A DNA stretch of 64,000 nt. Source: an uncultured Candidatus Saccharibacteria bacterium (GTDB taxonomy: Bacteria; Patescibacteriota; Minisyncoccia; Phycocordibacterales; SBAW01). Positions within the stretch are counted from its first letter, which is position 1. The number at the start of each line of letters is the position of its first letter. The stretch is from NCBI GenBank assembly GCA_964615415.1, contig CAZTNI010000002.1, forward strand, positions 104,687-168,686. Direction: 5' to 3'. The position numbers were made by a program, and so were the translations under genes. This document shows, piece by piece, positions 2,057-26,630 of this stretch. The notes under the pieces are model-generated. The model searched no databases. It saw only the letters and a list, made by a program, of their open reading frames with translations, and was not told where the DNA came from.

Positions 2057-2133
2057 TCCACAAGAGATTAATTTACAAACACAATAATTCATGATATAAT
2101 CATATTTAGATTCCTCAATATAAAGGTGCAACG

Positions 2134-2721: not shown

Positions 2722-2831
2722 GTGTCTCACGGGTCTGCGTATCTACGCAGACCTTTTTCTTTTACAACAATAATTCGAGTAAACAAAAACCGCCACGACT
2801 CTTTCGAGGTGGCGGTTGCAGATAAGTATGG

Positions 2832-3389: not shown

Positions 3390-3510
3390 AGCAGCCTCCT
3401 GTGTGTGATGAGCAAACCCGGCAAGCACTATAGCATAAAAGTTTTTGTGGCTGATGTAAGTGAGAGCGACCTGTGCCGTCTATAAAAATACATACTTTAT
3501 TATTGTATAT

Positions 3511-4089: not shown

Positions 4090-4139
4090 GCCCACCACGC
4101 AAGACTTTTCTTTGCTCGGGTTATCTATATACTTGAGCC

Positions 4140-4535
4140 ATGGATATTAATTACATTGCCGTTTTCTTGGCAGCTTTATCAGCATTTGTTTTGGGCTACG
4201 TGTGGTACTCAGTAGTGTTTGCAAAGCCGTGGCAGAAGCTTATTGGTATGCACAAGGAGGGTGGCGCTGCACGTCCGCCGCAGATGTGGAAACTACTCGT
4301 TGGTTCCGCGATCATTCAAATTTGTATGGCGCTTAACCTTGCCGCCTTTCTTGGCCGCAATGCGGACTGGACCTTTGGTCTTTTTGCAGGTGTTGCAGTT
4401 GGATTCGGCTGGGTAGGTTTAGCATTCGGCCTGAGCTATCTCTTTGAAGGGCGCCCGTTCAAACTCTGGCTTATTAACGCAGGGTACAACACAGTCTCAT
4501 TCGTGCTTATGGGCGTTATTCTTGGTGCGATGTAA
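4140..4535 (+). CDS. DUF1761-like small membrane protein
   Basis: MDINYIAVFLAALSAFVLGYVWY... with 3-4 TM segments; resembles DUF1761. Confidence 0.45.
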   Translation: MDINYIAVFLAALSAFVLGYVWYSVVFAKPWQKLIGMHKEGGAARPPQMWKLLVGSAIIQICMALNLAAFLGRNADWTFGLFAGVAVGFGWVGLAFGLSYLFEGRPFKLWLINAGYNTVSFVLMGVILGAM

Positions 4536-4592
4536 TTGACGCGCTTCTTGCTCTAGATTTAAATAGAGGGAGGTGTTCATCGGGAGGAACTG

Positions 4593-4778
4593 ATGTTGGA
4601 TGTGCAAGGAGGTCCGGCTCCGGCTCGGCTCGCTTGCGCTTTTTGTGGCGCGGCGCTTACGGGACACCCGAAGCATGTCATGTGGCGTGCAGAGGGGAAG
4701 GAGGATGTGTTTTTTTGCAATCGTGTGCATGAACAGGAGTACGTAGCGGAGCAAGCTGCAACTTCTGTAGCAGCGTAG
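4593..4778 (+). CDS. small YHS/TRASH-like metal-binding domain protein
   Basis: CAFCGAAL...FFCNRVHEQEY pattern; GGAGG RBS 6 bp upstream; 61 aa. Confidence 0.35.
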   Translation: MLDVQGGPAPARLACAFCGAALTGHPKHVMWRAEGKEDVFFCNRVHEQEYVAEQAATSVAA

Positions 4779-4964
4779 CTGCTCACCCCACGATTGCGTG
4801 CGTATGGCGAGGAGTACCCGGTTTCGAATGCTCGTAGCGAGCGACAAAGCTGGGAGGATACGTGCCCAGTACAAAAACCTATCGGGGAAGACTGGCGTAA
4901 GCCCCTCGCCCACCCTTTTTAACAGCTCGTAAGAGCTGTTTTTCTTTGGGGTACAATTATACAT

Positions 4965-5387
4965 ATGTGGATGGTATACGCATTCGGCTCTGCAGTCGCC
5001 GCGTCGCTCGTTGCAATTTTTGGAAAGATCGGATTACAAGGAGTTGATCCTACCCAGGCAACCGCCGTGCGCAGCGTTATTATGGCCGTCATGTTGGTAC
5101 TAGGTGCGCTGATGTTCGGTAAGTTTGCCGGGTTTGATATTTCTTCGCTCGGCAGCAAGGTATGGGTTTTTATCCTGCTTTCCGCGCTCGCGGGTGCTGC
5201 CTCGTGGCTTTTGTATTTTATTGCACTGCAAACTGGTCCTGCGAGCGCTGTGTCGGTGATAGACAAACTGAGTGTTGTGTTTGTGATACTGCTCGCGGCA
5301 CTGTTTTTAGGAGAAGCACTTACGTTGAAGAGCAGTATCGGCCTCGTGCTCACATTAGTAGGTACAGTATTAATTGTTTTTAAATAA
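4965..5387 (+). CDS. EamA-like (DUF6) small transporter
   Basis: 140 aa with 4 TM helices; half-size EamA architecture. Confidence 0.5.
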   Translation: MWMVYAFGSAVAASLVAIFGKIGLQGVDPTQATAVRSVIMAVMLVLGALMFGKFAGFDISSLGSKVWVFILLSALAGAASWLLYFIALQTGPASAVSVIDKLSVVFVILLAALFLGEALTLKSSIGLVLTLVGTVLIVFK

Positions 5388-5388
5388 T

Positions 5389-5865
5389 ATGAAAAAGAAA
5401 GACTGGGCAACGCTCGCGGGTTTTATTGTTTTTGCACAGGCTGCAGGGTTAATCGGCTCCTTTTTTACCATGCCGGCAATAGACAGTTGGTACCGCACAC
5501 TTGCGCGGCCAGACCTTGCGCCACCGAACTGGGTCTTTGGACCTGTGTGGACGACCTTGTTTCTTTTAATGGGTATAGCGGCGTTTTTGGTCTGGAAGAA
5601 GGGGTGGGGGAAAGTCCGTGTACAAGAAGCGCTCGGGATGTTTGTGGTCCAGCTCGGGCTTAATGTGCTGTGGTCATTCATCTTTTTTGGACTTAAAAAT
5701 CCAGGTCTCGCGTTTGTAGAGATCATGTTCCTGTGGCTTGCGATTATGGCAACGATCGTGCTCTTTGCACGGGTGTCTAAGTGGGCAGCGTTACTCCTTG
5801 TGCCGTACATTGCGTGGGTAAGTTTTGCTTCCTATCTTAATTATATGATCAGCATCTTAAATTAA
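5389..5865 (+). CDS. tspO: TspO/MBR tryptophan-rich sensory protein
   Basis: Trp-rich five-TM protein with WYRTLARPDLAPPNWVFGPVWTTLF motif; start at MKKKDW directly after the EamA stop. Confidence 0.75.
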   Translation: MKKKDWATLAGFIVFAQAAGLIGSFFTMPAIDSWYRTLARPDLAPPNWVFGPVWTTLFLLMGIAAFLVWKKGWGKVRVQEALGMFVVQLGLNVLWSFIFFGLKNPGLAFVEIMFLWLAIMATIVLFARVSKWAALLLVPYIAWVSFASYLNYMISILN

Positions 5866-5874
5866 ACTACTTAT

Positions 5875-6258
5875 ATGAAAGGATTTATTGCAGATATTGA
5901 AGATGAGTCGTTGAGTAATGAGTATTTTCGCAAAGTGCTCTACACAGACGAACGCTTGCAGTTAGTGGTGATGAGTTTACAGCCGAACGAAGACATTGGA
6001 GAGGAAGTGCACCAATTGGACCAGTTTATTCGTGTTGAGTCTGGCGAAGGAAAAGCGGTACTCGATGGTGTTGAGCATGAAATTCATGATGGGTCAGTAG
6101 TAGTTGTTCCTCAGGGTGTGCGCCATAACATCATCAACACTTCAAACGAGCAGCCGATGAAACTCTATACCCTGTACGCCCCGCCGAACCATCCCGACGG
6201 CACCATACATAAAACAAAGGAAGAAGCCGAGGCCGCTGAAGCGCAGTACGAAAAATAA
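5875..6258 (+). CDS. cupin-domain protein
   Basis: HQLDQFIRVESGEGKAVLDGVEHEIHDGSVVVVPQGVRHNI is a cupin two-motif pattern. Confidence 0.55.
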   Translation: MKGFIADIEDESLSNEYFRKVLYTDERLQLVVMSLQPNEDIGEEVHQLDQFIRVESGEGKAVLDGVEHEIHDGSVVVVPQGVRHNIINTSNEQPMKLYTLYAPPNHPDGTIHKTKEEAEAAEAQYEK

Positions 6259-6288
6259 AACAGGCCACTCCCTTGGGAGTGGCCTGTT
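6259..6288. terminator. bidirectional intrinsic terminator hairpin
   Basis: AACAGGCCACTCCC-TTG-GGAGTGGCCTGTT flanked by an A-run upstream. Confidence 0.6.
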
Positions 6289-6299
6289 GTTGTAGATGG

Positions 6300-6794
6300 T
6301 TATTCCGGAACGGATGCGAGGAGTTGCCGAACTGCGTCGCGAATCTCGTTCGAGATAAATACAGAAATGTTCGGGTCGCCCTGGGCACCTGCTCCTGGGT
6401 GAGGAATGTTGAGGTAGTTCCCGAAGCGGATGAAGCGTCCCTGCACCGAAGCATGCGCTCCATAGCGGTTGGCAAAATCAGCCATCTCTGCAGGTTGCTC
6501 AGAAAAACGGACCTCTTTCAGTCCAAACGCAACTTCAAGTTCCTTGCTGGTTACTTGAGTCTGGCCCCGTACAGAACCATCGATGTGGTGCACTTCCCAT
6601 ATAAGGCGCCACTCATCCGGTACGTCCGCCAGTTGTATGGTGAGGGTGGCTACTTCTCCATTTCGGATAACGAGCATGTTGCGCTCAAAATCGGGCTTGT
6701 CCGGCACCATTTTGTCGCCATGTCCAACCCACCAATCGGGTGGAAATGTTGCACGACGAGCCACGGGTCGTTCAGAAGTTGCAAGGGTCTGCAT
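6300..6794 (-). CDS. hypothetical protein
   Basis: 164 aa ORF bounded by a bidirectional terminator at 6259-6288; no family recognised. Confidence 0.4.
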   Translation of the reverse strand: MQTLATSERPVARRATFPPDWWVGHGDKMVPDKPDFERNMLVIRNGEVATLTIQLADVPDEWRLIWEVHHIDGSVRGQTQVTSKELEVAFGLKEVRFSEQPAEMADFANRYGAHASVQGRFIRFGNYLNIPHPGAGAQGDPNISVFISNEIRDAVRQLLASVPE

Positions 6795-6862
6795 GTAGTC
6801 CTCCTTAGGGTTAAAGCGACTTCCGCTTGCAGACTACCATACCTTTATAAAATGAACTATAT

Positions 6863-7387
6863 TTGCATAAGGAGTTTTTTAGAAAGGAGAAACGCGTGTC
6901 GCAAGATCCAATTCGCGCAGTCATTGGTGTGTGGTATCGGCGTGAGCCGGTAACCAACATGCTGCAGACATTCTACGTTCGCCGGTCCGAGTCTATGAAA
7001 AATTATCCTGGTGTGTGGAGTCTTCCGTCCTATCAGTATCGCCCGGATGATCTTCCTGATCCGATGGATCATGAAAGTGTTAGTGCGCTGTTTTCGGCCA
7101 TGAGTCGAGAACGCTTCCTTGGGGCGCCCGTAACCGTGCTCGAGTTTTTAACGGCCGGCCGATCGGATGATAACCCAATGGGCAGAATGGTGGAGTTGCT
7201 GCTGTATCGTATTGCGTTTGAGTATCCGCCACTCTTGCATTCTGCGTTTTATATCGACGCTGCGTGGTTAACGTCGCCGGAGTATGAACTGCGTACTGTG
7301 GGAGCTGCTATCGAGTGCGGTCTGTGCACGCATTTGTGGCGGGCATACGAATACGACACCTTGCTTAGCACTTCTGCGGCATCATAA
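6863..7387 (+). CDS. hypothetical protein (possible degenerate Nudix-like)
   Basis: 174 aa; weak GxxxxxE...RE-like segment (SAMSRERFLG); terminator immediately downstream. Confidence 0.35.
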   Translation: MHKEFFRKEKRVSQDPIRAVIGVWYRREPVTNMLQTFYVRRSESMKNYPGVWSLPSYQYRPDDLPDPMDHESVSALFSAMSRERFLGAPVTVLEFLTAGRSDDNPMGRMVELLLYRIAFEYPPLLHSAFYIDAAWLTSPEYELRTVGAAIECGLCTHLWRAYEYDTLLSTSAAS

Positions 7388-7417
7388 AGCCGCTCCCTAG
7401 GGAGCGGCTTTTCTTAT
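7387..7417. terminator. bidirectional intrinsic terminator
   Basis: AAGCCGCTCCC-TAG-GGGAGCGGCTT + TTTCTTATTT between convergent genes. Confidence 0.7.
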
Positions 7418-8907
7418 TTCAATATTTCCCACATGCCGGGGGACTGTGCGCCGCCCATACTGAAGACTGCTACGCCGCGCACACCTAAGCGCTTCGCAAG
7501 AGCTACCTTGTCGGCAATAGCTTGTGCATCGCTCCATGTCATGTAGTTAAATGGCTGCAGAGAATTTCCTAATTGTGACCCGAGATTTTGTGTTACAGAA
7601 GTCGTCGGTGTTGTTTGTTGTGTTTGCGTTGATTCGCTTCCTGTTGGCGCAAGTGTTGCAAGCTGGGAAGGGTAGTACGTAAAGCCAACTTCGTTTGCAC
7701 TGGTGCGCAGCGGTGTAATGCCAAGCTTTGCAGCAATATCAGTTGCATACTTGGGGTTAAATGCCCAGAGTCGTTGATATTTAAAACTACCATCTGCTTG
7801 CGGCGTTACTTCGTACTCGTAGCCGTAGGTTGCAACACCGACAATAATTTTGTTGCGCGAAATAGTTTGCGCAGCAAGGGTTACAAGAGTTTCTACCCAG
7901 CCGGTATCTGCAACCGGTGCATATGGCGCGGAACGCGCGATGTTAAGTCGGCGGTCGACGGTGCCTTGGTCGTAAGCCATTATTTCCACACGGTCGCAAT
8001 ACTTATTGAGCGCGTAGTAGTCGTTTGCGTAGTTGGTGGCATCTGGCGGAATCGTTTGTCCGGGTAAGTAGCGATTCTCAAGTGGCATGCGGGCCTCGAT
8101 GGTGCAGTAGACCCACTTGTTGCCCATACGTTGATACAGCCCTTTGAGGAATGTTGAGAAGTAATCTATTGTTTCGTGTTTCTTCGCTTCGAAGTCGATG
8201 TCAATGCCATCCCAGCCCTGCGCTTTCACAAGCGCAGCAATCTCATCCTCAAGCGCGATACGCGTTGTTTGGTTACTCAAGATGCGATGCATCTCTTCGC
8301 CGTCTCCCCACATAATAGAAGGTACTACGCGTACGTTTTGACGTTTTGCTTCTGCAATGAATGAAAGCCAAGGCTCTTTGTTGGTTATGCCGGTGCGGTC
8401 TACCAACTTTCCATTACTGTCTACACTAAGGGCAAACGGCATCACGCTTTTAAGTTGTGACAGACGGGGAAGTACGTCTTGTGTTGCAGATGCTACTCTC
8501 CAGTCGGGAAGCCATCCAGAAAATTCAAATGCTCCTGTTGCGCGGGGAGTTAAAGCCCCGCTGATAGTTCCGGGGTTTTGTATTCCTGGTACAACAGAGG
8601 TGCTGCCCAGACCGAGTGCAGCTTGGGTGCGAGGTCCAACAATGCCATACCCCGAGACGGCCGCTCCCGAGCAAATGATGCCTTTGTCGCACTGAAATTT
8701 TTTAACTGCTGCTTCAGTGAGTGGTCCAAAGTATCCCGTATTTTTTCCTGCTGCCAAGTATCCCTGAGCGATAAGTGTGTTTTGGAGTGCAGTCACGTCG
8801 CTGCCAGACATGCCGGAAGAAAGCGAACGTGTCGCAGCAAAAGTAGTAAGAGGGGATGCAAAGGCACAAGCGAACACAATAGATGTAAATACAAAAAAGC
8901 GCTTCAT
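7414..8907 (-). CDS. secreted peptidoglycan-binding domain + glycoside hydrolase family 18 protein
   Basis: Signal peptide; PG_binding_1-like LSSGMSGSDVTALQNTLIAQGYL...FGPLTEAAVKKFQ; GH18 catalytic motif WDGIDIDFE (DxxDxDxE). Confidence 0.7.
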   Translation of the reverse strand: MKRFFVFTSIVFACAFASPLTTFAATRSLSSGMSGSDVTALQNTLIAQGYLAAGKNTGYFGPLTEAAVKKFQCDKGIICSGAAVSGYGIVGPRTQAALGLGSTSVVPGIQNPGTISGALTPRATGAFEFSGWLPDWRVASATQDVLPRLSQLKSVMPFALSVDSNGKLVDRTGITNKEPWLSFIAEAKRQNVRVVPSIMWGDGEEMHRILSNQTTRIALEDEIAALVKAQGWDGIDIDFEAKKHETIDYFSTFLKGLYQRMGNKWVYCTIEARMPLENRYLPGQTIPPDATNYANDYYALNKYCDRVEIMAYDQGTVDRRLNIARSAPYAPVADTGWVETLVTLAAQTISRNKIIVGVATYGYEYEVTPQADGSFKYQRLWAFNPKYATDIAAKLGITPLRTSANEVGFTYYPSQLATLAPTGSESTQTQQTTPTTSVTQNLGSQLGNSLQPFNYMTWSDAQAIADKVALAKRLGVRGVAVFSMGGAQSPGMWEILK

Positions 8908-16542: not shown

Positions 16543-18309
16543 ATGGATATCCGAAACATCGCGATTATTGCTCACGTGGACCACGGTAAGACAACGCTTA
16601 CTGACGCTCTTTTGCGTCAAACAGGTGTTGCTGCTGAGGGTGTCTCCATGGACTCTAACGACCTCGAGCGCGAGCGCGGCATTACGATTTATGCGAAAAA
16701 TGCCGCAGTGTTTTATAAAGACACTAAGATCAATATTGTCGACACGCCGGGTCACGCAGACTTCGGCAGTGAAGTAGAGCGTGTGCTCCGCTCGATCGAC
16801 TCGGTGCTGCTTGTGGTCGACGCACAGGAGGGTCCTATGCCACAGACGCGTTTCGTATTGAAGAAGTCGCTTGAACTCGGCCTTAAACCAATTGTGGTTA
16901 TCAATAAAATCGACAAGCCAGCAGCAAACCCTGCACAGGCAGAGGAGCAGGTGCTTGAGTTGTTCTTGGAGCTTGGCGCATCTGACGAGCAGTCTAACTT
17001 TCCAGTTGTGTATGCGATCGGCCGCCAAGGTATTGCAAAGAAAAAACTCGAGGATGATTCGAAAGATTTAACCCCACTTCTCGATACTATTTTGGAAAAG
17101 GTTCCTGCTGCAGATCCTGCAAAGGCATCTTTGCCACTGCGTGCACAGCCGTTTAACCTTGCGTACGACACGTTTATGGGTCGTCTCGCGGTCGTGCGTG
17201 TGTATGAAGGAGCTATCTCTACCGGGCAGAGCGTGTTTGTAAAAAATGCAGACGGTGTTGCGCGTCCGGGTAAGGTAGTAAAAATGTTTTCGTTCAAAGG
17301 CCTTGAACGTGTAGAAACTACTACTGCGGTTGCGGGCGACATTGTCGTGGTTGCTGGCTTTCCAGACATCGATATTGGCGAAACTATTTGCAGCGATGAG
17401 CATGCAGAGATTCTTCCTGTTATTGCGGTTGATGCGCCAACAATCGCGCTTAACTTTATGGTTAACGCCTCTCCTTTTGCTGGTCGCGAAGGAAAGTTTG
17501 TCACAACGCGTCAGATCCGTGAGCGCCTTGAACGCGAACTCGAGGTAAACGTCGGGCTTAAGGTAGATTTTTCATCAGCAGAGGCATACAAAGTGTATGG
17601 TCGTGGCGAAATGCACATTTCAGTATTACTTGAACATATGCGCCGCGAAGGATACGAGATGCAGGTGTCCCAGCCACAAGTTATTTTCCATGAAGAAAAC
17701 GGTGTAAAAATGGAACCGTTTGAAGAAGTGGTTATTGATATCCCAGAACAATACCAAGGTGCAATTATCGAGCGTCTAGGCCAGCGTAAAGTAGTGCTTA
17801 AAGACATGCGCGTGCAAAACGGCGCAGTGCGCATGGTGCTTGAGGGTCCAACGCGCGGGCTCCTTGGCTACCGCTCACAATTTGTGCTCGACACCAAAGG
17901 CGAAGGCATTTTCTCATCTCGCTTTATTGAATTCCGTCCACACGCAGGAGAAATAACGAAGCGCGCAGTAGGCTCTATGGTCTCGATGGCAGCAGGGAAG
18001 GCACTCGGCTTTTCACTCTGGAATTTGCAGGACCGCGGCCAGCTGTACATCGCTCCTACAACAGAAGTGTATGAAGGTATGGTGGTGGGTAATACCTCTA
18101 AGGGTGATGAGATGTTTGTAAACCCAACGAAGGGTAAACAACTTACTAACATGCGCGCATCTGGTTCTGACGAAGCGATGTATCTTACGCCGCCGTATGA
18201 ACTCACGATTGAACGTGGTCTTGAAGTAATGTCTGAGGACGAATATCTCGAAGTGACTCCAAAGTCTGTCCGCCTCCGCAAACAAGGAGGTGTTGCTCGC
18301 AAGTTTTAA
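16543..18309 (+). CDS. typA: translational GTPase TypA/BipA
   Basis: [34 protein letters not shown]-motifs; 588 aa; full-length family match. Confidence 0.92.
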
Positions 18310-18322
18310 CTAACGATACATA

Positions 18323-18360
18323 AAAAAGAGGCGAGGTCTTATAAGACCTCGCCTTTATTT
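18323..18360. terminator. bidirectional terminator between typA and nadV
   Basis: AAAAAAGAGGCGAGGTCTT-ATA-AGACCTCGCCTTTATTT. Confidence 0.75.
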
Positions 18361-18361
18361 G

Positions 18362-19777
18362 TTACAGAACCTGCGCACGGGAGCGAATCTCGGCGAAGGT
18401 GTATTCATGGAGTACTTTCCCGTTTACAAACACCGGCACCAGCACGTTCTCGAGGTTTTGAACAATCGCATCTTCCTCGCGGATCGTGCGGTAGGTGCCG
18501 TCTTCCTCGACGAGAGCCAGTCGACCGGCCTTCGAGCGCTTGCCCGGGTCGGTCACGGGGTCCTTGATCACGTCGTGCCAGGTACCGTCGACATCGACCG
18601 CAGAGCATTTGATCGCGAACTTCTGCGTATCGCGATTCATATTCTGCAGTAGTCCGCCGCCGGAGCCGAACGCAACGTTGTCTGCAGACCAGCCCGCCTC
18701 CTTCATCGCTTCGAGTACGACACCGAGCATTGTGTAGTCGATGCCGTCGCCCTGGATGACACGCACCTTCGGGTTGAGGACCTTGTACCCCTTCTCGTTG
18801 GTGGTGTATCCGAAGGCACTGCCGAGTGCTTCGAGCACCTTCACGACGACATCGGGCGGATTGCCCGAGTCCGGGCGTACCACTAGGGTGCCGTCGCGGG
18901 CCAGGACCTGCTCACGCAACTCCTTGCCCCAGAGCTCGGTGCATGCCCGGTAGATGTCGAAGCTGTCAGAGACGACAGCGACGAGGCCGGTCGGGTACTG
19001 TTCGAGCATGTTGCGGTACGCGTCCGCCTCCTTGTTGCGACCCCACGAAGTAATTGTGGAGTGCTCCGCAGCGGGGATCGAGTATCCCGCCATCGGCTCG
19101 TGGTAGTACTTGCGCGCGACACGAGTCGCCTGGAGCGTGTCGGTGCCGCGGAAGGAAACCAAGTGTGCGGCGCCGCCGAGGCCCGCGGACTCGACCGAAG
19201 TCGAACCGCGGAAGCCGAAGTCGTGGACCTTGAAGTCGATCAGCGCAGGAGTACCGGTCTGCTCCAGATAGGAGAGGACTAATCTCCGCATCTCACGGCT
19301 CTGAGTCGCCACGGTGGTGGGGTACCAGAGCATCGAGAGTAGGGTCTCGACATAGTTGGTGATCCACGGTAGTTCCGGATCCGTATTTTCGATCGTCATC
19401 AGCACGTTGCGGGTCGGAACCGAAATTCCTTCCGGCACTGCCTTGATGATGACCGGCAGCCGTCCGCCGTGAACGTTCAGGATACGATCCCATCCGTCAC
19501 GGTTGTAGACGCCCGGAGTGCCGAAGTGTGCAGCAAAATCTTCTGCCGCTTCCTCGACATTCTGCCGGTTGACGACCGGACCCTCGAGATACCGCTTGAG
19601 ATAGTACTGCAGTCCAAAGAAGGTGGTGCTCGCAAAGAGGCCACCCCGGCTTTCGAAGAAGGAATACACCTTCCTCGTTTTGGGCGGGTACTGCCGCCAG
19701 TGCGAGACCTTGTAGCTGTCGGTCAACTCGACCGTATTGACTTCGTCTTCGACGAAGAGGCGAGGATTGTAGTTCAT
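18362..19777 (-). CDS. nadV: nicotinamide phosphoribosyltransferase (NadV/Nampt family)
   Basis: NPRLFVEDEVNTVELTDSYKVSHWRQYPPKTRKVYSFFESRGG Nampt signature; start at the internal Met with an AAGGAG RBS; ~470 aa. Confidence 0.85.
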   Translation of the reverse strand: MNYNPRLFVEDEVNTVELTDSYKVSHWRQYPPKTRKVYSFFESRGGLFASTTFFGLQYYLKRYLEGPVVNRQNVEEAAEDFAAHFGTPGVYNRDGWDRILNVHGGRLPVIIKAVPEGISVPTRNVLMTIENTDPELPWITNYVETLLSMLWYPTTVATQSREMRRLVLSYLEQTGTPALIDFKVHDFGFRGSTSVESAGLGGAAHLVSFRGTDTLQATRVARKYYHEPMAGYSIPAAEHSTITSWGRNKEADAYRNMLEQYPTGLVAVVSDSFDIYRACTELWGKELREQVLARDGTLVVRPDSGNPPDVVVKVLEALGSAFGYTTNEKGYKVLNPKVRVIQGDGIDYTMLGVVLEAMKEAGWSADNVAFGSGGGLLQNMNRDTQKFAIKCSAVDVDGTWHDVIKDPVTDPGKRSKAGRLALVEEDGTYRTIREEDAIVQNLENVLVPVFVNGKVLHEYTFAEIRSRAQVL

Positions 19778-19802
19778 GAGAGTGTCTCCTTTTGTATTGC
19801 GA

Positions 19803-20756
19803 TTACCGGTGCCGTAAGGCTTCCAGGTCATCGAGCATGGGTTGGACAGACGTTTTCCTTGCAGATTCCGTAAGATGCTCAGTCAGCATCTCACCAAACG
19901 CTTGGTGTCCGGGTTGAAGCACTGCAAGTAGCTTGTCGTACGGAATCCAAGCAAGGTGTGCGATATCGTCTGCGGGGCAGGGAGTCCCGGAGACATACGT
20001 TGCCGCGAAGAGAGTACTCATGATGACGTCTCCTGTGCCGCGGTAGCGCCAGTCGTCAACAACGCGCGAGCCTACAAAGCGGATGTTGGCGAGCGTAGGT
20101 AGTGAAGTTTCTTCCCTGGCTTCGCGCAGGGCTGCTTGTTCAAGAGATGCGTCAGTCGTGTCGACAAACCCGCCGATAAAGCGGTACTTGTCGCCGTCAC
20201 TCACCTTTGCCCCGAGCAAGACTTCTTGTCGGGCCGGATTGAGGATGGCGATGTCGACCGCAGGGTAGGGAATAGGAAAGCGATTTTCCTGCGTGTGAAT
20301 CACTCCCCGTCTGAATGCTGCTGAGCGCAAGATGCGTTTTGAAGTTTTGCGGCGATACTCGGTGCCGCTTTGCGCATCAATCTTCGGCACTTCAACGACA
20401 GTGTTTCCTCCACTGTAGTAGGGGATGAACGAGTCTCGAGATCCGTAGAGCACGGCGTTTGCGGCGGGGAACGTTTTCGCGATCAATGCATCGAGATTCT
20501 TACTCCACTCTTCGTTTGAAGGGTGGTCATAGAGTGGGGCAATATGCGCGTGCGGATATGCCGTGCGCACCATTGCTTCGCGCATTACATACGAGAGAGG
20601 ATTCTTCTTGGTGGGGAAGGCCTCGGTCGCGCCGATCAAGATCAACAGCTGGTCGTGGCGTGCAGCAACGTAGTCGAGAAGATAGCGGTGGCCAGCGTGG
20701 AGAGAGGCTACTTGAAAGCGGCCAATTACCACGCCAACGCTGGTTCGTGTGTGCAT
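19803..20756 (-). CDS. nadM: bifunctional NMN adenylyltransferase / Nudix hydrolase (NadM-Nudix)
   Basis: GVVIGRFQVASLHAGHRYLL cytidylyltransferase HxGH motif; C-terminal Nudix box GGFVDTTDASLEQAALREAREETSL; start moved to MHTRTSVG, which has a GGAG RBS. Confidence 0.8.
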   Translation of the reverse strand: MHTRTSVGVVIGRFQVASLHAGHRYLLDYVAARHDQLLILIGATEAFPTKKNPLSYVMREAMVRTAYPHAHIAPLYDHPSNEEWSKNLDALIAKTFPAANAVLYGSRDSFIPYYSGGNTVVEVPKIDAQSGTEYRRKTSKRILRSAAFRRGVIHTQENRFPIPYPAVDIAILNPARQEVLLGAKVSDGDKYRFIGGFVDTTDASLEQAALREAREETSLPTLANIRFVGSRVVDDWRYRGTGDVIMSTLFAATYVSGTPCPADDIAHLAWIPYDKLLAVLQPGHQAFGEMLTEHLTESARKTSVQPMLDDLEALRHR

Positions 20757-20797
20757 GTTATTTCTCCATGTTGTTAAAGAACCTCCCGTTCGATTAG

Positions 20798-20818
20798 TTA
20801 GTGTTATTAATACACTAA
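20798..20818. promoter_or_regulatory. NrtR-type operator TTAGTGTTATTAATACACTAA (21-bp palindrome, GT-N7-AC core)
   Basis: Perfect 7-bp inverted arms TTAGTGT/ACACTAA with a 7-nt AT spacer, 42 bp upstream of the nadM start. Confidence 0.6.
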
Positions 20819-20861
20819 CATTAGGTAAAAAAATAAGCCTTTTTACCCTATCGTACGAGAC

Positions 20862-20882
20862 TTCGTGTATCTTATACACTAA
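20862..20882. promoter_or_regulatory. second NrtR-type operator TTCGTGTATCTTATACACTAA
   Basis: Same 21-bp layout with one arm mismatch; 64 bp from the first site, in the ARH-nadM intergenic region. Confidence 0.5.
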
Positions 20883-20950
20883 CAAAACAGAAGTCAAGTC
20901 GCGCTGTGGATAAGAAAAACCCCGGCTTCTGTGAGCCGGGGTGAGTGTCG

Positions 20951-21970
20951 TTACGCGAACTGTTGATTATCGGGACGAAAGAGCTGGGCTTTGTTGAACA
21001 AGGCTACGCCCAGCTCGGTCATTTTCTCGCGTCCATGCAGCACCTTAAGCCATTGCTCCGGAATCCCGCCAATGCCGTAGCGAAGTCCAAGGAGCCCGCC
21101 CGCAATTGCGCCGTAGGTGTCGACGTCGCCGCCCACAGAAATTGCCTTGATGATGCCGTTGGCAAAGCTGGTGGCAGTGACTGTTGCCCATACTGCGACA
21201 CGCAACGAGAGTACCACGTCGCCCTCATGGCCCTGAATGTTGAGGTTGTAGTTGGGGCTGGTAAGGGGAAGAGAGGTGACATATTTGACTGCATCTGCTT
21301 CAAGGTGCGGAACATCTGAGAATTTGCGCGCAAGTCTGCAAGCATCTTCCCATGCATTGCGTGGTTCGATGCCGTAGAGCAGTAGGTTGGCCATGATGCT
21401 GTAGATCGCGCACGAAGCAATTGCGAGACCGTTGCGGTGAGTCACCCACGACTGTTCGGCGCCCAGCACTGCTGCTTGGCGAGCGTCGCCTCTTGCGGCA
21501 AGAGGTGCTGCAATACAGCGCATAAGGCTCCCGTTGCTTGCTGGAGTAGGAATGTTTCCTGCGGCAAACTCCGCGATAGACTCTGCGTGAGTTGCCGGTC
21601 TCAGTGCTGCTCGTAGTGTACTGCCGCTGCCATACGCGACCTTGCCGAGGATGGGCCTGCGGCCATGGATGAACGCACGCAAGTGGTCGTATACGAGAGA
21701 TGCAGAAAAGTCGTCTGCGGCGAGTAGGGCAGAGGCAAGGTAGGCAGCAAGCTCAGAGTCGTCGGTCGGCTGCCCTGCCTCCATGAGAGTCTGGCCCAAC
21801 TTCCCCGGAGGATCGAAGGGTTTGTAGTCATGGAAGACCAATCCGCCACGTGCTATGTCGGCAGCAATGTACGCATCGCTCTTCCATTCGTACGGTGCGC
21901 CGAGTGCGTCACCGCAGGTAGTGCCGACCATGGCACCAACAAAACGATCAAGTGTTTCTTTTTCAAACAC
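20951..21970 (-). CDS. ADP-ribosylglycohydrolase family protein
   Basis: MFEKETLDRFVGAMVGTTCGDALGAPYEW...GQPTDDSELA are ARH (DraG-like) signatures; 339 aa. Confidence 0.8.
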   Translation of the reverse strand: MFEKETLDRFVGAMVGTTCGDALGAPYEWKSDAYIAADIARGGLVFHDYKPFDPPGKLGQTLMEAGQPTDDSELAAYLASALLAADDFSASLVYDHLRAFIHGRRPILGKVAYGSGSTLRAALRPATHAESIAEFAAGNIPTPASNGSLMRCIAAPLAARGDARQAAVLGAEQSWVTHRNGLAIASCAIYSIMANLLLYGIEPRNAWEDACRLARKFSDVPHLEADAVKYVTSLPLTSPNYNLNIQGHEGDVVLSLRVAVWATVTATSFANGIIKAISVGGDVDTYGAIAGGLLGLRYGIGGIPEQWLKVLHGREKMTELGVALFNKAQLFRPDNQQFA

Positions 21971-22051
21971 GAATGTTTCCTTTCTTGTTGAGAATAACTT
22001 CCAAACCGACTATAGCAACAGCGCTGAAGAGTGTAAAGCAAACACTAATTG

Positions 22052-22750
22052 TTACAGTACTTCTATTTCGTGCACTTTTGGTGAGGTGAACTTATAGAGT
22101 TGTGCGGGGCGGAAGCGGCCGCCAGTGCGCTTGCGAGGGAGTTCAGTCACGATTTTTAATTTGTGAATTTTTTTACGGAAATTTCGCTTGTCGAGGTCAG
22201 CATGCAAAATACTTTCGTACGCTGATTCAAGTTCGGTTAGTGTAAATTCCTCTGGCATAAGTTTACTCATGAGGGTGGTGTAGGTAACGCGCGAGCGAAG
22301 GCGTTTAAGGGCAATGTCGAGCATCTCGTCGTGGTCGTAGGCAAGTGACTTTGCGTCTTGAACGCGCGCCCACCACGCATCTTGAGAATCTCCTTGTTCG
22401 GCGGTCGAAAGAGCGTCCCATGGTATAAACCCGCTGTACGCTACAGCGACAACACGGCCGCGAGGGTCGCGACTTACTTCACTAAAGGTATAGAGTTGCT
22501 CGAGATAAATCTTTTTTGATGAGACTCCCGCTTTTTCTTCAAGCAGGCGCTTCGCTGCTTCTTCAGCAGTTTCTTTCGGGTGGATAAGGCCGCCGGTAAA
22601 TGCAGCAGAGTTGGGGAAGTGGGGAGGGCGATGTACTGAAACAAGACGCACAAGGAGTTCGTTGTCGCGAATAGTAAAAAGCACCACGTCGGATGCGATA
22701 ACTGCAAACCGCAAATGGGCAGGCGCAAGAGAGGTTTTTGCCTTTTTCAT
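22052..22750 (-). CDS. nrtR: Nudix-related transcriptional regulator NrtR (Nudix domain + C-terminal winged-helix)
   Basis: N-terminal Nudix-like domain (FAVIASDVVLFT...TGGLIHPKETAEEAAKRLLEEKAGV); C-terminal ~90 aa wHTH; sits at the head of the nadM/nadV/ARH operon with matching palindromic operators. Confidence 0.7.
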   Translation of the reverse strand: MKKAKTSLAPAHLRFAVIASDVVLFTIRDNELLVRLVSVHRPPHFPNSAAFTGGLIHPKETAEEAAKRLLEEKAGVSSKKIYLEQLYTFSEVSRDPRGRVVAVAYSGFIPWDALSTAEQGDSQDAWWARVQDAKSLAYDHDEMLDIALKRLRSRVTYTTLMSKLMPEEFTLTELESAYESILHADLDKRNFRKKIHKLKIVTELPRKRTGGRFRPAQLYKFTSPKVHEIEVL

Positions 22751-22807
22751 ACATGTATTATAGCAGCAGTATAGATATTGTCAAGAGTACACTTATCAAC
22801 ACCTAAG

Positions 22808-22828
22808 TTAGTGTAAACTTGACACAAA
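22808..22828. promoter_or_regulatory. NrtR-type operator-like site TTAGTGTAAACTTGACACAAA
   Basis: Left arm perfect, right arm 6/7; lies in the nrtR / J-pseudokinase divergent intergenic region. Confidence 0.4.
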
Positions 22829-22860
22829 ACAAGTGCGGGTGTAGAGTCCGATATAGATAG

Positions 22861-22881
22861 TAAGTGTAGCAAATACACTTA
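22861..22881. promoter_or_regulatory. NrtR-type operator TAAGTGTAGCAAATACACTTA (perfect 21-bp palindrome)
   Basis: 8-bp perfect inverted arms with GT-N7-AC core; 46 bp upstream of the 22927 gene and 111 bp upstream of nrtR. Confidence 0.55.
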
Positions 22882-22926
22882 TAAACAAAGATCTTTCACA
22901 ACAGCAAAAACGCTAGGAGGTGGCGC

Positions 22927-24081
22927 ATGAGTAGCGTCGACGCAGTTGAACAGGTGCTCGCAAAACTCACTACCGCAACCACGTTCGTAGCGGTCTTCGG
23001 ATCGCTCCCAACGGGCGATGTGCGAGAAAAGCGAGGCGCGCTGCGCAAGCAGTTTGCGTACTTGGTTAATCTGGTACATCCAGACCACGTGCCGCCGATT
23101 ATGAAAGATCGTGCAGGCGAAGCGGTGCAACGACTTACCGACCTGCATGCTGCAGCGAAAGTTGCGGTCGATGCGGGAAAGTATGAGGTGCCGTTTGCTG
23201 CTGGGTCGACCGTGTCGCCCAAGTCGGCAGAAGTGGTGCTGCAATCACCGACCGCGACATATCGCCTTTCCGGTAATCCGTACAAGGAAGGAGACTTCTC
23301 GGTACTCTATCGGGGTAGTGTGGTTGGTACTGGACACGACGTGATCATAAAGATCGCCAGTGTTCCCGCACACAACACGTACCTCGAAGCAGAAATCAGA
23401 ACGCTGAAGAAATTCAGTGGCGCTGATCCTGTCTCGCCTGTCGGTAAGATAGGCCGGTTTGTGCCACGAGTGCTCGATACGTTTCTGGTGTCTGACGAAG
23501 ACAACCGGCGTGTGCGAGCAACAGTGCTTCCGTATCTCGATGGCTACGTGGCAGTGAGTGACATCATTGGCGCGTTCCCAAACGGGCTCGACCCACGAGA
23601 CGCTGCATGGATTGCCCGGCGACTGCTTGCACAAGTGCTTGCGGCGCAGGCTATCAAGGTGGTGCATGGGGCGATCGTTCCTGACCACCTGTTGGTGTCA
23701 CTTCATTCGCACGACCCGCTGCATATCGGGTGGGTGCACGCGATCGAGGACCCAGCGACTACCGGCAAGCGCATCACTCAGGTGATCGACCGCTATCGCG
23801 AGTGGTATCCGGAAGAAGTCTTCCACAAGGAAGTGCCTGACTTCCGGACTGACCTCTACATGGCCGGGAAAACTATCATCAAGCTTTTGGGTGGCGACGT
23901 AAGGCGGAATACATTTCCGACAAGCGTTCCCGACCAACTGAAGCGCATCATTCTTCGGTGCGTTGAAACATCTCCCGCGCGCAGGCCAAGTAACGGCATG
24001 CAGTTCCTCGACGAGTTCACAAGCGTCGTCAGGAATGTGTGGGGGAAGGCGTGGCGACCTCTTTCGATGCCGCCACGTTAA
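22927..24081 (+). CDS. J-domain (HPD) + kinase-like domain protein (predicted pseudokinase)
   Basis: N-terminal FVAVFGSLPTGDVREKRGALRKQFAYLVNLVHPDH aligns to a DnaJ J-domain including HPD; kinase-like GDFSVLYRGSV...DVIIKIAS...LEAEIRTL; catalytic-loop position reads VVHGAIVPDHLL (no catalytic Asp); AGGAGG RBS. Confidence 0.55.
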   Translation: MSSVDAVEQVLAKLTTATTFVAVFGSLPTGDVREKRGALRKQFAYLVNLVHPDHVPPIMKDRAGEAVQRLTDLHAAAKVAVDAGKYEVPFAAGSTVSPKSAEVVLQSPTATYRLSGNPYKEGDFSVLYRGSVVGTGHDVIIKIASVPAHNTYLEAEIRTLKKFSGADPVSPVGKIGRFVPRVLDTFLVSDEDNRRVRATVLPYLDGYVAVSDIIGAFPNGLDPRDAAWIARRLLAQVLAAQAIKVVHGAIVPDHLLVSLHSHDPLHIGWVHAIEDPATTGKRITQVIDRYREWYPEEVFHKEVPDFRTDLYMAGKTIIKLLGGDVRRNTFPTSVPDQLKRIILRCVETSPARRPSNGMQFLDEFTSVVRNVWGKAWRPLSMPPR

Positions 24082-24120
24082 AATCGCTTATGAGCAACCA
24101 GAAGAAAAGGAGTACTCCAC

Positions 24121-25158
24121 ATGGGTGGCGGTACCTTTGATTCAAGTGCCTACCGCGCAGCAGCTGCTGCGCGTGCGAGTGCCGGCGTCGACGACTTCGA
24201 CTATGACCGCAAGGTTAAGTCGGGCGTCGTGTCTGGCATTCATGCAAGCCTCGACCCGAAGACGGTCGCGGGCGCAACCAGTCCTCTCGCGGGAAAGAAT
24301 GTCCGCGAGAGTCGCGACAACGATGAGCATCCGAACTCGATCCCGATCGCTGTCTTCTTCGACGTCACGGGTTCGATGCATCGTGTGCCTGTCGTGCTCC
24401 AGAAGAAGCTCGCGACGCTGATGGACGTGATCATCGCCAAGGCCGGCATCCCCGACCCGCAGGTTCTGGTCGGCGCTATCGGCGACTCGAGTCCGTACTA
24501 CGGGCGTGGTATGACCGACCAGTATCCGTTCCAGGTCGGGCAGTTCGAGTCGGACAACCGCTTCGACGACGCTCTGCGCAACATCATCCTCGAGGGCGGA
24601 GGCGGCGGGCAGGTCATGGAGTCCTATGGACTTGCATACCGCTTCGCCGCTCACCACACGGCAACCGACGCGTGGGACAAGCGCGGCAAGAAGGGCTACC
24701 TCTTCACCATGGGTGACGAGGCCTTCTGGCCCACGATCACTTCTGGCGAGCTGAAGCAGATCTTCGGCGTCGAGGATGCGGCGGATGAATCCGTTGCGGA
24801 TCTCTATGCCAAGGCCTCGGAGCGCTGGGAGATCTACCACATCGCTATCACCGCCGGCACGTCGCACGGCGGCAACACCGCCATCCACGACAAGTGGCGT
24901 GCTCTGCTCGGCGAGCGCTTCATCAAGCTCGACGACGCAGACCTCGTCTGCGAGGTGATCGCCGGTATCGTGCACATGCTCGAAACGGCGAACGACCTCG
25001 ACAAGGTCGTCGGCGACATCGGCCTCTCCGGCCGGGCGGCAACGAGTGTGAAGAACGCACTCGTTCCCGTATCGGGCGGCCGCGTCCCCGGTCACCTCGC
25101 GAAGGGGAATCTCCCCAAGCGGCGTGACAAGGGCGCGGGCGGTGTGAGCGCGATCTAG
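24121..25158 (+). CDS. von Willebrand factor A (vWA) domain protein with MIDAS motif
   Basis: IAVFFDVTGSM (DxTxS MIDAS) plus downstream T and D residues; 345 aa; ~62% GC; AAGGAG RBS; terminator at 25181-25214. Confidence 0.6.
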   Translation: MGGGTFDSSAYRAAAAARASAGVDDFDYDRKVKSGVVSGIHASLDPKTVAGATSPLAGKNVRESRDNDEHPNSIPIAVFFDVTGSMHRVPVVLQKKLATLMDVIIAKAGIPDPQVLVGAIGDSSPYYGRGMTDQYPFQVGQFESDNRFDDALRNIILEGGGGGQVMESYGLAYRFAAHHTATDAWDKRGKKGYLFTMGDEAFWPTITSGELKQIFGVEDAADESVADLYAKASERWEIYHIAITAGTSHGGNTAIHDKWRALLGERFIKLDDADLVCEVIAGIVHMLETANDLDKVVGDIGLSGRAATSVKNALVPVSGGRVPGHLAKGNLPKRRDKGAGGVSAI

Positions 25159-25180
25159 TATCGCCTCTATACACAAACCT

Positions 25181-25214
25181 ATGGCTGGACGGTATACCCG
25201 CCCAGCCATTTTTC
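25181..25214 (+). terminator. intrinsic terminator separating the vWA gene from the purA-like gene
   Basis: ATGGCTGGACGG-TATAC-CCGCCCAGCCAT + TTTTTCT. Confidence 0.65.
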
Positions 25215-25233
25215 TCACCGAAAGGAGAACGAC

Positions 25234-26577
25234 ATGAGTAACAGAAAAGCGACTATCGTCGTCGGACTCGGGTTCGGTGACGAAGGTAAGGGAACAACCG
25301 TCGACTACCTTGCTCGACAGAACGACGTGTCGGCAGTAGTTCGCTTTAACGGCGGCGCACAAGCCGCACATAACGTGGTGACTCCCGATGGGAAGCATCA
25401 TACGTTCCAGCAGTTCGGGAGCGCATCGTTTCTGCCGCGGGTACGCACGCATCACTCTCGTTTTATGGTGCTCGACCCGCTTGCTCTTGCGAACGAGGCG
25501 AAACATCTGGCGGAAATTGGATGCGGCAATGTGTTCGCTCGACTTTCGGTCGACGAACAAGCGCTCGTGGTGTCGCCCTTCCACAAGGCGGCGAATCGCA
25601 TTCGCGAAGTGCTTCGAGCGAAGGGTAAGCATGGCAGTGTTGGTATGGGTGTGGGCGAGACGGTTGGCGACTCGATCGCATTTCCGGAGTACGCACTCCA
25701 TGCACGCGACTTGCGAGACCGTGCAGCAATTCTTTCTCGCTTCAAGTTCTTTCAGAATATGAAGCAAGGAGAATTTCGGGAACATCTCTCCGACCTTGCG
25801 AGTAATCCGCATATACAAGAAGAAGTGAAGATCCTTGCGGATCCGGATATGCCTGCGCTACTCGCCGACTTGTACTACCGGGTAGCCATGCGCTTTCCTA
25901 TCGTCGATGGAAACTACCTTGCGCGACTCGCACGCGAGGGAAGTCTTATCTTCGAAGGGGCGCAGGGAGTACTGCTTGACGAGTGGTATGGGTTCCATCC
26001 CTACACCACCTGGAGCACAACGACGTTTAGAAATGCACTGACTCTCTTGCGAGAAATCGGCTACGAGGGTCATGTGGAAAAGCTCGGTGTGCTCCGTGCG
26101 TACTCGACGCGCCACGGTGCCGGTCCCTTCCCGACGGAAGATCCGAATCTTGGCATGTTGGTGCCGGAGCTGCATAACGGCATTGGGCCGTGGCAGGGCG
26201 GCTTCCGTATCGGCTGGCCGGACCTGGTGCTCGCCCGGTACGCGCTCGCGGTTGCGGGTGGGGCAGACGCACTTGCGATCACGCACCTCGACCGCTTCAT
26301 GCCGCTTACTCGTAAAAAAGTCGCGGTACGCTACCAAGTTCGCGACACGACTGTTGCTACTCTGCAGCCGAAAGAGCACCTTACTGATCTGGTCTACCAA
26401 GAGCAGCTCATGGGGCTCGTATCTCGTGCTACTCCGCAGTATGAAGATATTGCTCCGGGGGAAGCAGCGTACCTACAATTCCTCGAGCGACGGCTCTGCG
26501 TGCCGATCGCGCTTACCTCGCACGGCATGACGTATCTCGATAAACGTTCCCGTTCTATGGTAAGAGCGGCAGCATGA
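25234..26577 (+). CDS. adenylosuccinate synthetase (PurA) family protein, divergent paralog
   Basis: GLGFGDEGKGTTVDYL, FNGGAQAAHNV, FEGAQGVLLD and GVLRAYSTRHGAGPFPTE match PurA; canonical GTTGRGIGP reads GSVGMGVGE and GATTGRRRR reads GPWQGGFRIGWPD. Confidence 0.7.
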   Translation: MSNRKATIVVGLGFGDEGKGTTVDYLARQNDVSAVVRFNGGAQAAHNVVTPDGKHHTFQQFGSASFLPRVRTHHSRFMVLDPLALANEAKHLAEIGCGNVFARLSVDEQALVVSPFHKAANRIREVLRAKGKHGSVGMGVGETVGDSIAFPEYALHARDLRDRAAILSRFKFFQNMKQGEFREHLSDLASNPHIQEEVKILADPDMPALLADLYYRVAMRFPIVDGNYLARLAREGSLIFEGAQGVLLDEWYGFHPYTTWSTTTFRNALTLLREIGYEGHVEKLGVLRAYSTRHGAGPFPTEDPNLGMLVPELHNGIGPWQGGFRIGWPDLVLARYALAVAGGADALAITHLDRFMPLTRKKVAVRYQVRDTTVATLQPKEHLTDLVYQEQLMGLVSRATPQYEDIAPGEAAYLQFLERRLCVPIALTSHGMTYLDKRSRSMVRAAA

Positions 26578-26596
26578 GTTCTTTGTTCTACGTACT

Positions 26597-26630
26597 AAGC
26601 CCTGCTACGCGCAGGGCTTTTCTTTTTGTA
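26597..26630 (+). terminator. intrinsic terminator after the purA-like gene
   Basis: AAGCCCTGC-TACGC-GCAGGGCTT + TTCTTTTT. Confidence 0.7.

Follow-up and report, generated by a model that had tools for sequence, protein, structure and literature searches.

The PurA-like protein and its active site

The window analysed here is a stretch of 64,000 nucleotides from the genome of an uncultured Candidatus Saccharibacteria bacterium (contig CAZTNI010000002.1, positions 104,687 to 168,686). At positions 25234..26577 of its + strand lies the gene of a PurA-like protein, a predicted GTP-dependent ligase with remodelled pockets for the phosphate of inosine monophosphate (IMP) and for aspartate, as judged from the adenylosuccinate synthetase (AdSS) fold, Pfam, family models and alignment. 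The gene closes a three-gene cassette that also encodes a J-domain protein with a protein-kinase-like domain and a protein with a vWA/MIDAS fold. A candidate operator for the regulator NrtR precedes the cassette, and genes of NAD salvage lie nearby.

The open reading frame (ORF) starts with ATG behind the ribosome-binding site GAAAGGAGAA and codes for 447 amino acid residues. The AdSS fold, already recognized in the first-pass annotation of this DNA, is borne out by the end-to-end match to Pfam PF00709 (Adenylsucc_synt; residues 8-432, E 1e-67) and by the AlphaFold2 model (pLDDT 87.9), which superimposes on long-form PurA structures with template modelling (TM) scores of 0.75-0.8. The low-pLDDT loops of the model coincide with the flexible active-site loops of PurA, and the closest solved structures are canonical PurA proteins (~30% identity, E ~1e-36). 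All motifs quoted earlier for this fold, GFGDEGKG, IFEGAQG and AYSTRHGAGPFPTE, occur in the translation, as do the two rewritten ones: HGSVGMGVGE where GTTGRGIGP is expected, and GPWQGGFRIGWPD in place of GATTGRRRRTGW.

Databases annotate the homologues as adenylosuccinate synthetase. The protein nevertheless scores below the PurA equivalog cutoffs (NF002223, 181 vs 402 bits; TIGR00184, 163 vs 395.55 bits) and reaches 37 bits with the PurZ model NF038379, the cutoff of which is 300; phage members stay at or below 57 bits with the latter. Seven other family members from phages, plasmids, Kitasatospora and Myxococcus obtained 101-171 bits against the PurA cutoff of 402. Since it falls under the cutoffs for both enzymes, the protein belongs to the AdSS superfamily but is accepted by the curated models as neither PurA nor PurZ.

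For the active site, 120 homologue clusters were aligned with E. coli PurA, whose numbering is used here with the initiator Met left out. The homologues stem from a search of 5.8 billion proteins, which returned more than 120 clusters with 47-66% identity, those with names belonging to Patescibacteria. The GTP site and the catalytic residues (P-loop, Asp13, Lys16, His41, Gln224 and Asp333) are invariant in 120/120 homologues. Asp13 and Lys16 are part of the near-invariant P-loop GD[AE]GKG, Gln224 is retained within FEGAQG, Asp333 within T[HN]LD, and Ser414 of the GTP site within S[YH]G. In the motif GGxQAAHNV, His41 is kept and Asn38 is exchanged for Gln (120/120). The segment HG[ST][CV]GMGIGE carries Cys or Val for Thr129 (120/120), Met for Arg131 (107/120) and Glu for Pro135 (120/120); HPYTTWST retains Thr239 and has Trp for Ser240; TRHG has His for Val273 (120/120). 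NxxGxWQGxFRxGW has Trp for Thr300 (113/120), Gln for Thr301 (120/120) and Phe for Arg305 (117/120). Arg303 and Arg304 are deleted or Gly in this segment, and Arg306 is the only arginine left.

In the AdSS of Helicobacter pylori, IMP forms hydrogen bonds with Asp12, Asn37, Gly119, Thr121, Thr230, Val264, Arg294 and, from the neighbouring subunit, Arg135 (PMC11571797). These positions correspond to Asp13, Asn38, Gly127, Thr129, Thr239, Val273, Arg303 and Arg143' of the E. coli enzyme. Three of the eight contacts are retained in the family (Asp13, Gly127 and Thr239) and five are altered; neither the alignment with solved PurA relatives nor that of the 120 homologues has a basic residue at or near position 143. 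Mutagenesis of the E. coli enzyme assigns the binding of L-aspartate to Thr300, Thr301 and Arg303-305, all five of which are lost; Arg131, now Met, is a further aspartate-binding residue that is gone. The former arginine-rich pocket is now aromatic and amide in character (Trp300, Gln301, Phe305 and Trp240), and His126, Glu135 and His273 have become invariant.

The pattern is that of a GTP site and a phosphotransfer machinery that are intact, and of two substrate pockets that were rebuilt and then frozen by selection. It speaks for a changed specificity and against a dead enzyme. Altered substrate use, one of the two options offered by the first-pass annotation, appears as the natural reading of the lost aspartate and IMP-phosphate contacts. 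The invariance of all catalytic and GTP-binding residues makes the other option, a regulatory pseudo-enzyme, unlikely.

Compared with PurA (EC 6.3.4.4; 1ADE and 1CG1 from E. coli, 6ZXQ from H. pylori), the family shares the long-form fold, the P-loop GDxGKG, the catalytic residues and the guanine-specifying Asp333. It differs in the replaced aspartate and IMP-phosphate contacts, the lack of a link to purB, the vWA partner, the NrtR operator and the carriage by phages and plasmids. Phage PurZ had been named as a precedent, and it resembles the family as a phage-borne AdSS homologue with changed nucleotide specificity. PurZ and PurZ0, the N6-succino-2-amino-2'-deoxyadenylate synthases, are short forms (~340-370 aa) that still use aspartate. 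The window protein, in contrast, is longer, has lost the aspartate pocket and aligns with PurZ/PurZ0 structures (7ODX, 6TNH and 7VF6) with a TM score of only ~0.55; on the strength of this TM score and the PurZ model scores, a PurZ-like enzyme was rejected. Unbiased clustering of the neighbouring ORFs recovered no recurrent gene beyond those of the vWA protein, the J-domain protein and NrtR/NAMPT, datZ, mazZ and dpoZ not having been searched by name. RefSeq gives the copies of cluster-C mycobacteriophages the name '2-aminooxy adenylosuccinate synthetase' (e.g. NC_054715, NC_023733 and NC_028986; phrog_1211). The sole cluster-C copy tested, LRRHood gp256, reaches 57 bits where the PurZ model requires 300, and the PurZ-type label on the mycobacteriophage copies is probably a propagated misannotation.

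The cassette and its NAD/ADP-ribose context

The neighbours of the PurA-like gene are those described earlier, a J-domain/kinase-like and vWA pair upstream and msrA downstream. The gene itself had been treated as a stand-alone unit, whereas it proves to be the enzymatic member of a conserved cassette. This was established on samples of 83 bacterial and 80 viral loci by tblastn of the window neighbours against the 83 loci and subsequent unbiased all-versus-all clustering of every ORF. Only four families recur in the bacterial loci: the PurA-like protein (83), a vWA protein of 345 aa (79), a J-domain protein of 384 aa (69) and an NrtR-like protein (38). The first three are present in 80, 76 and 61 of the viral loci, respectively. 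All four viral loci without the vWA gene are cut at a contig end, and in nearly all bacterial loci that lack it the sequence is cut off close to the PurA-like gene. The sole exception is L016, a metagenome-assembled genome of a deltaproteobacterium with neither the vWA nor the kinase-like partner despite 8 kb of unmasked upstream sequence. Apart from L016, the vWA and PurA-like genes always occur together. The remaining clusters reflect Micromonospora synteny or antisense shadow ORFs only, and further conserved neighbours were thus dismissed.

The first protein of the cassette (22927..24081, + strand) combines a J-domain with HPD motif and a protein-kinase-like domain with HGA for HRD, as deduced from the family alignment, Pfam and a profile search of the PDB. 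Among 19 members of this family, 17 match Pfam DnaJ and 16 match Pkinase, and the profile retrieves CK2 and DnaJ from the PDB. HPD is nearly invariant. The kinase-like domain retains the VAIK lysine and the glutamate of helix alpha-C; since HRD is invariantly HGA, the protein is probably a pseudokinase, a call made from the sequence. It is referred to below as the J-pseudokinase.

The second protein (24121..25158, + strand) is a novel vWA/MIDAS protein with the signature DVTGS...T...GDE and the N-terminus MGxGxW, assigned by AlphaFold2, Foldseek and alignment. Its sequence matches nothing in Pfam or the PDB, even as a profile. Its model (pLDDT 86.4) retrieves solely vWA/MIDAS domains with Foldseek (probability 1.0, E ~1e-6), namely those of SpaC, integrin alpha-I and beta-I, RGLG1 and Ku80. 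The MIDAS site has D81-x-T83-x-S85 and D199 without exception, and T180 in at least 90% of the sequences. The N-terminus is MG in 123/130 representatives and MGxx(x)[WFY] in 120/130. At E <= 1e-30 the family comprises ~800 clusters (50% identity). Some homologues, mycobacteriophage-like and others (P0306 and P0337), carry Hint/intein insertions between KGY and xIGDE, the latter including the MIDAS Asp; these probably explain phage matches with 62% coverage. Fusion proteins were discarded as a functional clue, the long vWA members being intein insertions or frameshift artefacts.

Mycobacterium phage LRRHood encodes the set as gp253 (J-pseudokinase), gp254 (vWA), a small gp255 and gp256 (PurA-like). 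The annotated start of gp254 (L085, 5680-6735) lies 12 codons upstream of MGSGAW, and the internal ATG is probably the true start. In Vibrio and Rhizobium phages the vWA and PurA-like proteins are retained and the J-pseudokinase is replaced by a Met/Gly-rich protein. The latter (237-264 aa, no family match; L089:6091-6804 and L090:5669-6463) is encoded one to two genes upstream of the vWA gene, the side where the J-pseudokinase usually sits.

Two family-specific peptide patterns identified carriers of the PurA-like family in at least 590 GTDB species. Within Patescibacteria these include Saccharibacteria, Paceibacterota, Kaiser-, Uhr- and Cerribacteria. Beyond them are carriers on the Chloroflexota side (Oscillochloris, Anaerolineae and Caldilineaceae), Actinomycetota (Micromonospora, Streptomyces, Kitasatospora and Actinomadura), Myxococcota (Myxococcus and Archangium) and one gammaproteobacterium. 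Plasmid-borne copies are found in Rhodococcus (including pRHL1 of RHA1) and Tsukamurella. The gene occurs in phage records of Mycobacterium (201; cluster C/Bixzunavirus), Rhizobium (10) and Vibrio (6), and on many IMG/VR contigs of 100-500 kb. In Micromonospora the chromosomal synteny around the cassette is conserved, which argues against a typical variable defence island. Gene content and distribution characterize the cassette as a conserved, horizontally mobile module.

One member of the family coexists with a canonical PurA. On locus L026 (Anaerolineae, 9.7 kb; region 2017-8412) the cassette copy scores 171 bits and fails the PurA cutoff. A canonical purA 3 kb downstream passes it with 527 bits, carries GTTKRGIGP, GATTGRPRRCGW and TKLD, and is followed by purB. 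With the two paralogs side by side, the locus serves as a natural control. The proposal of a divergent PurA paralog, as opposed to the ordinary AdSS of the lineage, is upheld by the sub-cutoff score, the cross-phylum substitutions and the coexistence on L026. A lineage-typical housekeeping PurA is ruled out by the cross-phylum spread and the canonical purA-purB pair on L026. As to the search for a second, canonical purA that had been proposed, one coexists on L026, and no canonical purA or purB is present in the window, which is only part of the source genome. Nor is purB among the conserved cassette neighbours in the bacterial and viral loci.

The regulatory and metabolic surroundings, which the first-pass annotation had missed, are the strongest functional clue. 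Upstream of the cassette and divergent from it lies nrtR (22052..22750, - strand), coding for a Nudix-related regulator (NrtR_WHD, E 8e-23, plus NUDIX; NF050029, 133 bits, under the equivalog cutoff). NrtR is ADP-ribose-responsive where tested. The divergon of 176 bp between nrtR and the cassette holds two sigma70-like promoters, both consensus matches only. TTGACA-16-TATAAT (22784..22757, - strand) agrees at 12/12 positions, and TTGACA-17-TAGAGT (22819..22847, + strand) at 10/12. Just downstream of the -10 box of the cassette promoter, the perfect 21-bp palindrome TAAGTGTAgcaaaTACACTTA (22861-22881) forms a candidate NrtR operator. It fits exactly the published consensus, a 21-bp palindrome with the core GT-N7-AC (PMC2330246). 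Two further NrtR-type copies, TAAGTGTA-N5-TACACTTA with three mismatches each, are located at 20798-20818 and 20862-20882 upstream of a nadM-type gene, so that the window contains three such sites against 0.11 expected by chance.

Three genes of NAD and ADP-ribose metabolism follow beyond nrtR on the - strand. An ADP-ribosylglycohydrolase of the DraG/ARH family (20951..21970; Pfam PF03747, E 2.5e-47; TIGR02662 match below cutoff) is adjacent to a nadM-type fusion of nicotinamide mononucleotide adenylyltransferase (NMNAT) and Nudix (19803..20897; Pfam NUDIX; NCBIfam matches to bifunctional NMNAT/Nudix proteins, all below cutoff). The third gene, nadV (18362..19831), encodes a nicotinamide phosphoribosyltransferase (NAMPT; Pfam NAPRTase and NAMPT_N; NF006629, 625 vs cutoff 405). 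The listed TTG start of nadM overlaps the two NrtR boxes; translation therefore probably begins at the ATG near 20759 (MHTRTSVG...). At the 3' end of the listed ORF, 29 nt (19803-19831) are shared with nadV.

The operator recurs at other loci. In the 83 bacterial loci (1.14 Mb), 27 of the 43 GTGTA-N5-TACAC sites (at most one mismatch) lie between -250 and +20 of the cassette start, a region that makes up 1.8% of the sequence; the box is thus ~35-fold enriched upstream of the cassette. NrtR-type operators precede the cassette in the candidate phyla radiation (CPR) and in Chloroflexota. The sites near the cassette start often form tandem pairs, and nine Chloroflexota loci without nrtR nearby are among the loci that have such sites. 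The nrtR gene itself is adjacent in 38/83 bacterial and ~10/80 viral loci. In Actinomycetota an nrtR-like gene is the first of the operon, and in Rhodococcus and Tsukamurella a Nudix/NrtR-like gene is the last.

On the viral contigs L101, L118, L092, L098 and L104, nrtR, NAMPT, vWA, PurA-like and J-pseudokinase genes form a tight co-directional operon. All NAMPTs of the viral operons pass the NadV-type equivalog, which rules them out as Namat, the NARP1 enzyme. A phosphoribosyltransferase-like gene and NMNAT/Nudix are located a few genes upstream of the cassette in a Rhizobium phage, and a Vibrio phage encodes a NADAR protein. Among Mycobacterium phage records as a whole, with or without the cassette, 104 contain a NAMPT homologue. 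Taken together, the cassette frequently has genes for NAMPT, NMNAT/Nudix, ADP-ribosylglycohydrolase or NADAR in its vicinity, and no functional theme other than NAD/ADP-ribose recurs there. Cassette operons with nrtR but lacking NAMPT occur on L095 and L096. On L092, L095, L096, L098, L101 and L118, a recurrent protein of ~250 aa with a weak match to deoxynucleotide monophosphate kinase (Pfam DNMK, 24 bits, below cutoff) and one of ~417 aa without family match are encoded a few kb upstream of the viral operon.

Candidate function and alternative explanations

On balance we lean towards a GTP-dependent ligase with new substrates that acts together with its vWA partner in a response linked to ADP-ribose and NAD, a reading for which the active-site residues and the gene context speak. 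The enzyme would transfer the gamma-phosphate of GTP to the oxo group of a nucleotide-type acceptor other than free IMP, with Asp13 as base and His41 as acid. A neutral or cationic N-nucleophile, and not an acidic amino acid, would then displace the phosphate. With a nucleophile other than aspartate the product would not be adenylosuccinate, and a lyase would be unneeded. The retention of Gln224 and Asp13 suggests a 6-oxopurine-like acceptor, which would not be clamped through a 5'-monophosphate in the manner of IMP. Since the trans-subunit Arg143 is missing, the site is possibly completed by the vWA partner and not by a second PurA-like subunit. The enzyme is probably complexed with this partner, whose MIDAS site or N-terminal glycine may present or complete the substrate, and the J-domain protein would recruit DnaK. 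Transcription of the cassette would be derepressed when ADP-ribose accumulates, a signature of NAD+ breakdown. The module could accordingly serve bacteria in the homeostasis of NAD and adenylate; large phages would probably use it to counter an NAD+-depleting defence. Candidate reactions are the coupling to nicotinamide, the restoration of a deaminated adenine nucleotide by amination with ammonia, and the transfer of a purine nucleotide onto the vWA protein at its N-terminal glycine.

Several points weigh against this proposal. The residues were mapped by sequence alignment only. The identity of the substrates is a matter of pure inference, no 6-oxopurine-like metabolite is obvious in NAD/ADP-ribose metabolism, and the proposal gives no reason why the enzyme should need a vWA protein together with a J-domain pseudokinase. 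On the regulatory side, the Actinomycetota loci contain no GT-N7-AC palindrome under strict criteria, some of the nrtR-carrying 'viral' contigs of IMG/VR may be misclassified CPR genomes, and regulators of the NrtR family also govern pathways unrelated to NAD, e.g. the use of arabinose and xylose (PMC2330246).

A bolder version, which we regard as improbable, is an undescribed NAD+/ADP-ribose pathway of bacteria and large phages with new AdSS-fold chemistry, in which GTP would activate an oxo or hydroxyl group and either nicotinamide or the near-universal free N-terminal glycine of the vWA protein would attack it. The nicotinamide option, if true, would be a direct rebuilding step and a fourth route of NAD+ reconstitution in phages. 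The glycine option would yield a conjugate of protein and purine nucleotide, a new post-translational modification.

The protein could instead be a true AdSS isozyme that uses IMP, aspartate and GTP with altered substrate binding and is induced to raise AMP/ATP for NAD resynthesis. The completeness of the AdSS fold, the presence of every catalytic and GTP residue and the annotation as adenylosuccinate synthetase in databases are consistent with this, as is the window without another purA, given that CPR genomes might lack one. Throughout the family, however, all three arginines and both threonines of the aspartate site are replaced by non-polar or amide residues, and the phosphate clamp of Arg143' and Thr129 is lost. 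Every member tested scores 100-181 bits against the cutoff of 402. The canonical purA-purB pair coexists on L026, phages and plasmids carry the gene, purB is never linked, and an isozyme would leave the vWA partner unexplained; we judge this explanation very unlikely. Just as unlikely is a pseudo-enzyme that binds GTP without catalysing a reaction and serves the pair of vWA protein and J-pseudokinase as regulator or scaffold. It would suit the rewriting of both substrate pockets and the nature of the partners, a pseudokinase and a protein-interaction (vWA) domain. Yet Asp13, Lys16, His41, Gln224, the P-loop and Asp333 are near-invariant over very distant lineages, and so are the rewritten loops (HG[ST][CV]GMGIGE, WQGxFR, TRHG and HPYTTW), which points to an active site under selection and not to decay.

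A role in biological conflict has to be considered as well, with the vWA and kinase-like pair sensing infection and the enzyme depleting GTP or IMP or producing a toxic or signalling nucleotide, as in anti-phage or abortive infection systems of a TerY-P-like kind. The module resembles the TerY-P triad (vWA protein TerY, Ser/Thr kinase and PP2C phosphatase) in being a three-gene unit built on vWA/MIDAS and kinase-fold proteins. The kinase-like protein weakly matches defence kinases (mad6, MkoA and PD-T4-6), and the distribution is patchy across phyla with carriage by plasmids and phages. Unlike in TerY-P, the third gene of the cassette is AdSS-like and not a phosphatase, no PP2C phosphatase is found among the conserved neighbours in the bacterial and viral loci, and the kinase-like protein has a J-domain, HGA and no catalytic Asp. 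Known defence systems were rejected, PADLOC giving no match for the PurA-like enzyme or the vWA protein. The stable synteny in Micromonospora does not resemble a variable island, the cassette is co-operonic with NAMPT and has NrtR-type operators in front, and ~200 lytic mycobacteriophages carry it. Such an effector function is therefore unlikely in our estimate.

The NrtR regulon and the phage NAD+ reconstitution pathways NARP1-3 are also among the closest known parallels. The cassette stands behind an NrtR-type operator and beside nadV, nadM-Nudix and ARH genes, and large phages with the cassette also carry NAD salvage genes. In contrast, its proteins are not homologous to Adps, Namat, Nampt, Nmnat, PnuC or NadR. 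A component of NARP3 or NARP1/2 was ruled out, those papers describing unrelated proteins with the cassette unmentioned. The study of the NrtR regulon does not mention the cassette by name; it lists nrtX-nrtY of Streptomyces, Kineococcus, Frankia, Proteus and Hahella as unexplained NrtR targets (PMC2330246). Full-text literature searches retrieved nothing that describes a cassette of vWA, J-pseudokinase and PurA-like genes, and announcements of phage genomes mention no more than a 'PurA-like adenylosuccinate synthetase'.

To our knowledge, enzymes of the AdSS fold catalyze two reactions only, those of PurA and PurZ/PurZ0, both with aspartate. The PurA-like family would represent a large and ancient third branch, its aspartate pocket gone and its catalytic machinery intact, within a module that has no described counterpart and occurs in hundreds of phages. 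The label adenylosuccinate synthetase, or the PurZ-type name in phages, is probably wrong for thousands of database entries and distorts the metabolism reconstructed for CPR bacteria. Should the module act on NAD+/ADP-ribose metabolism, it would bring a new player into the arms race around NAD+ in which phages and bacteria are engaged.

Transcription and composition of the locus

The PurA-like gene had been described as flanked by its own terminators. Hairpins do lie on both sides, one with a U-run in front of the gene (25181-25209, + strand; -21.8 kcal/mol, z -4.3) and a terminator-like one, a stem followed by a T-run, that closes the cassette (26597-26619, + strand). An independent transcription unit, however, does not result. 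The gap before the gene measures 75 nt, of which 24 nt plus the ribosome-binding site separate the upstream hairpin from the start codon, and this interval contains no promoter match. Transcription of the gene must therefore depend on read-through from the promoter of the cassette. The upstream hairpin is more likely an attenuator or an element of processing or stability. Comparable stems are present in L005 and L032 and absent from L002 and L007.

The GC content of the block 18000-26600 is 0.52-0.61 compared with 0.46-0.52 in the flanks, with the exception of the bin 22000-22999 (0.476), which holds nrtR and the intergenic region. This GC-richer block of NAD salvage genes and cassette may mark an acquired island. 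The GC-rich stretch also contains a long antisense ORF (558 aa, 24142-25818), which is its shadow ORF.

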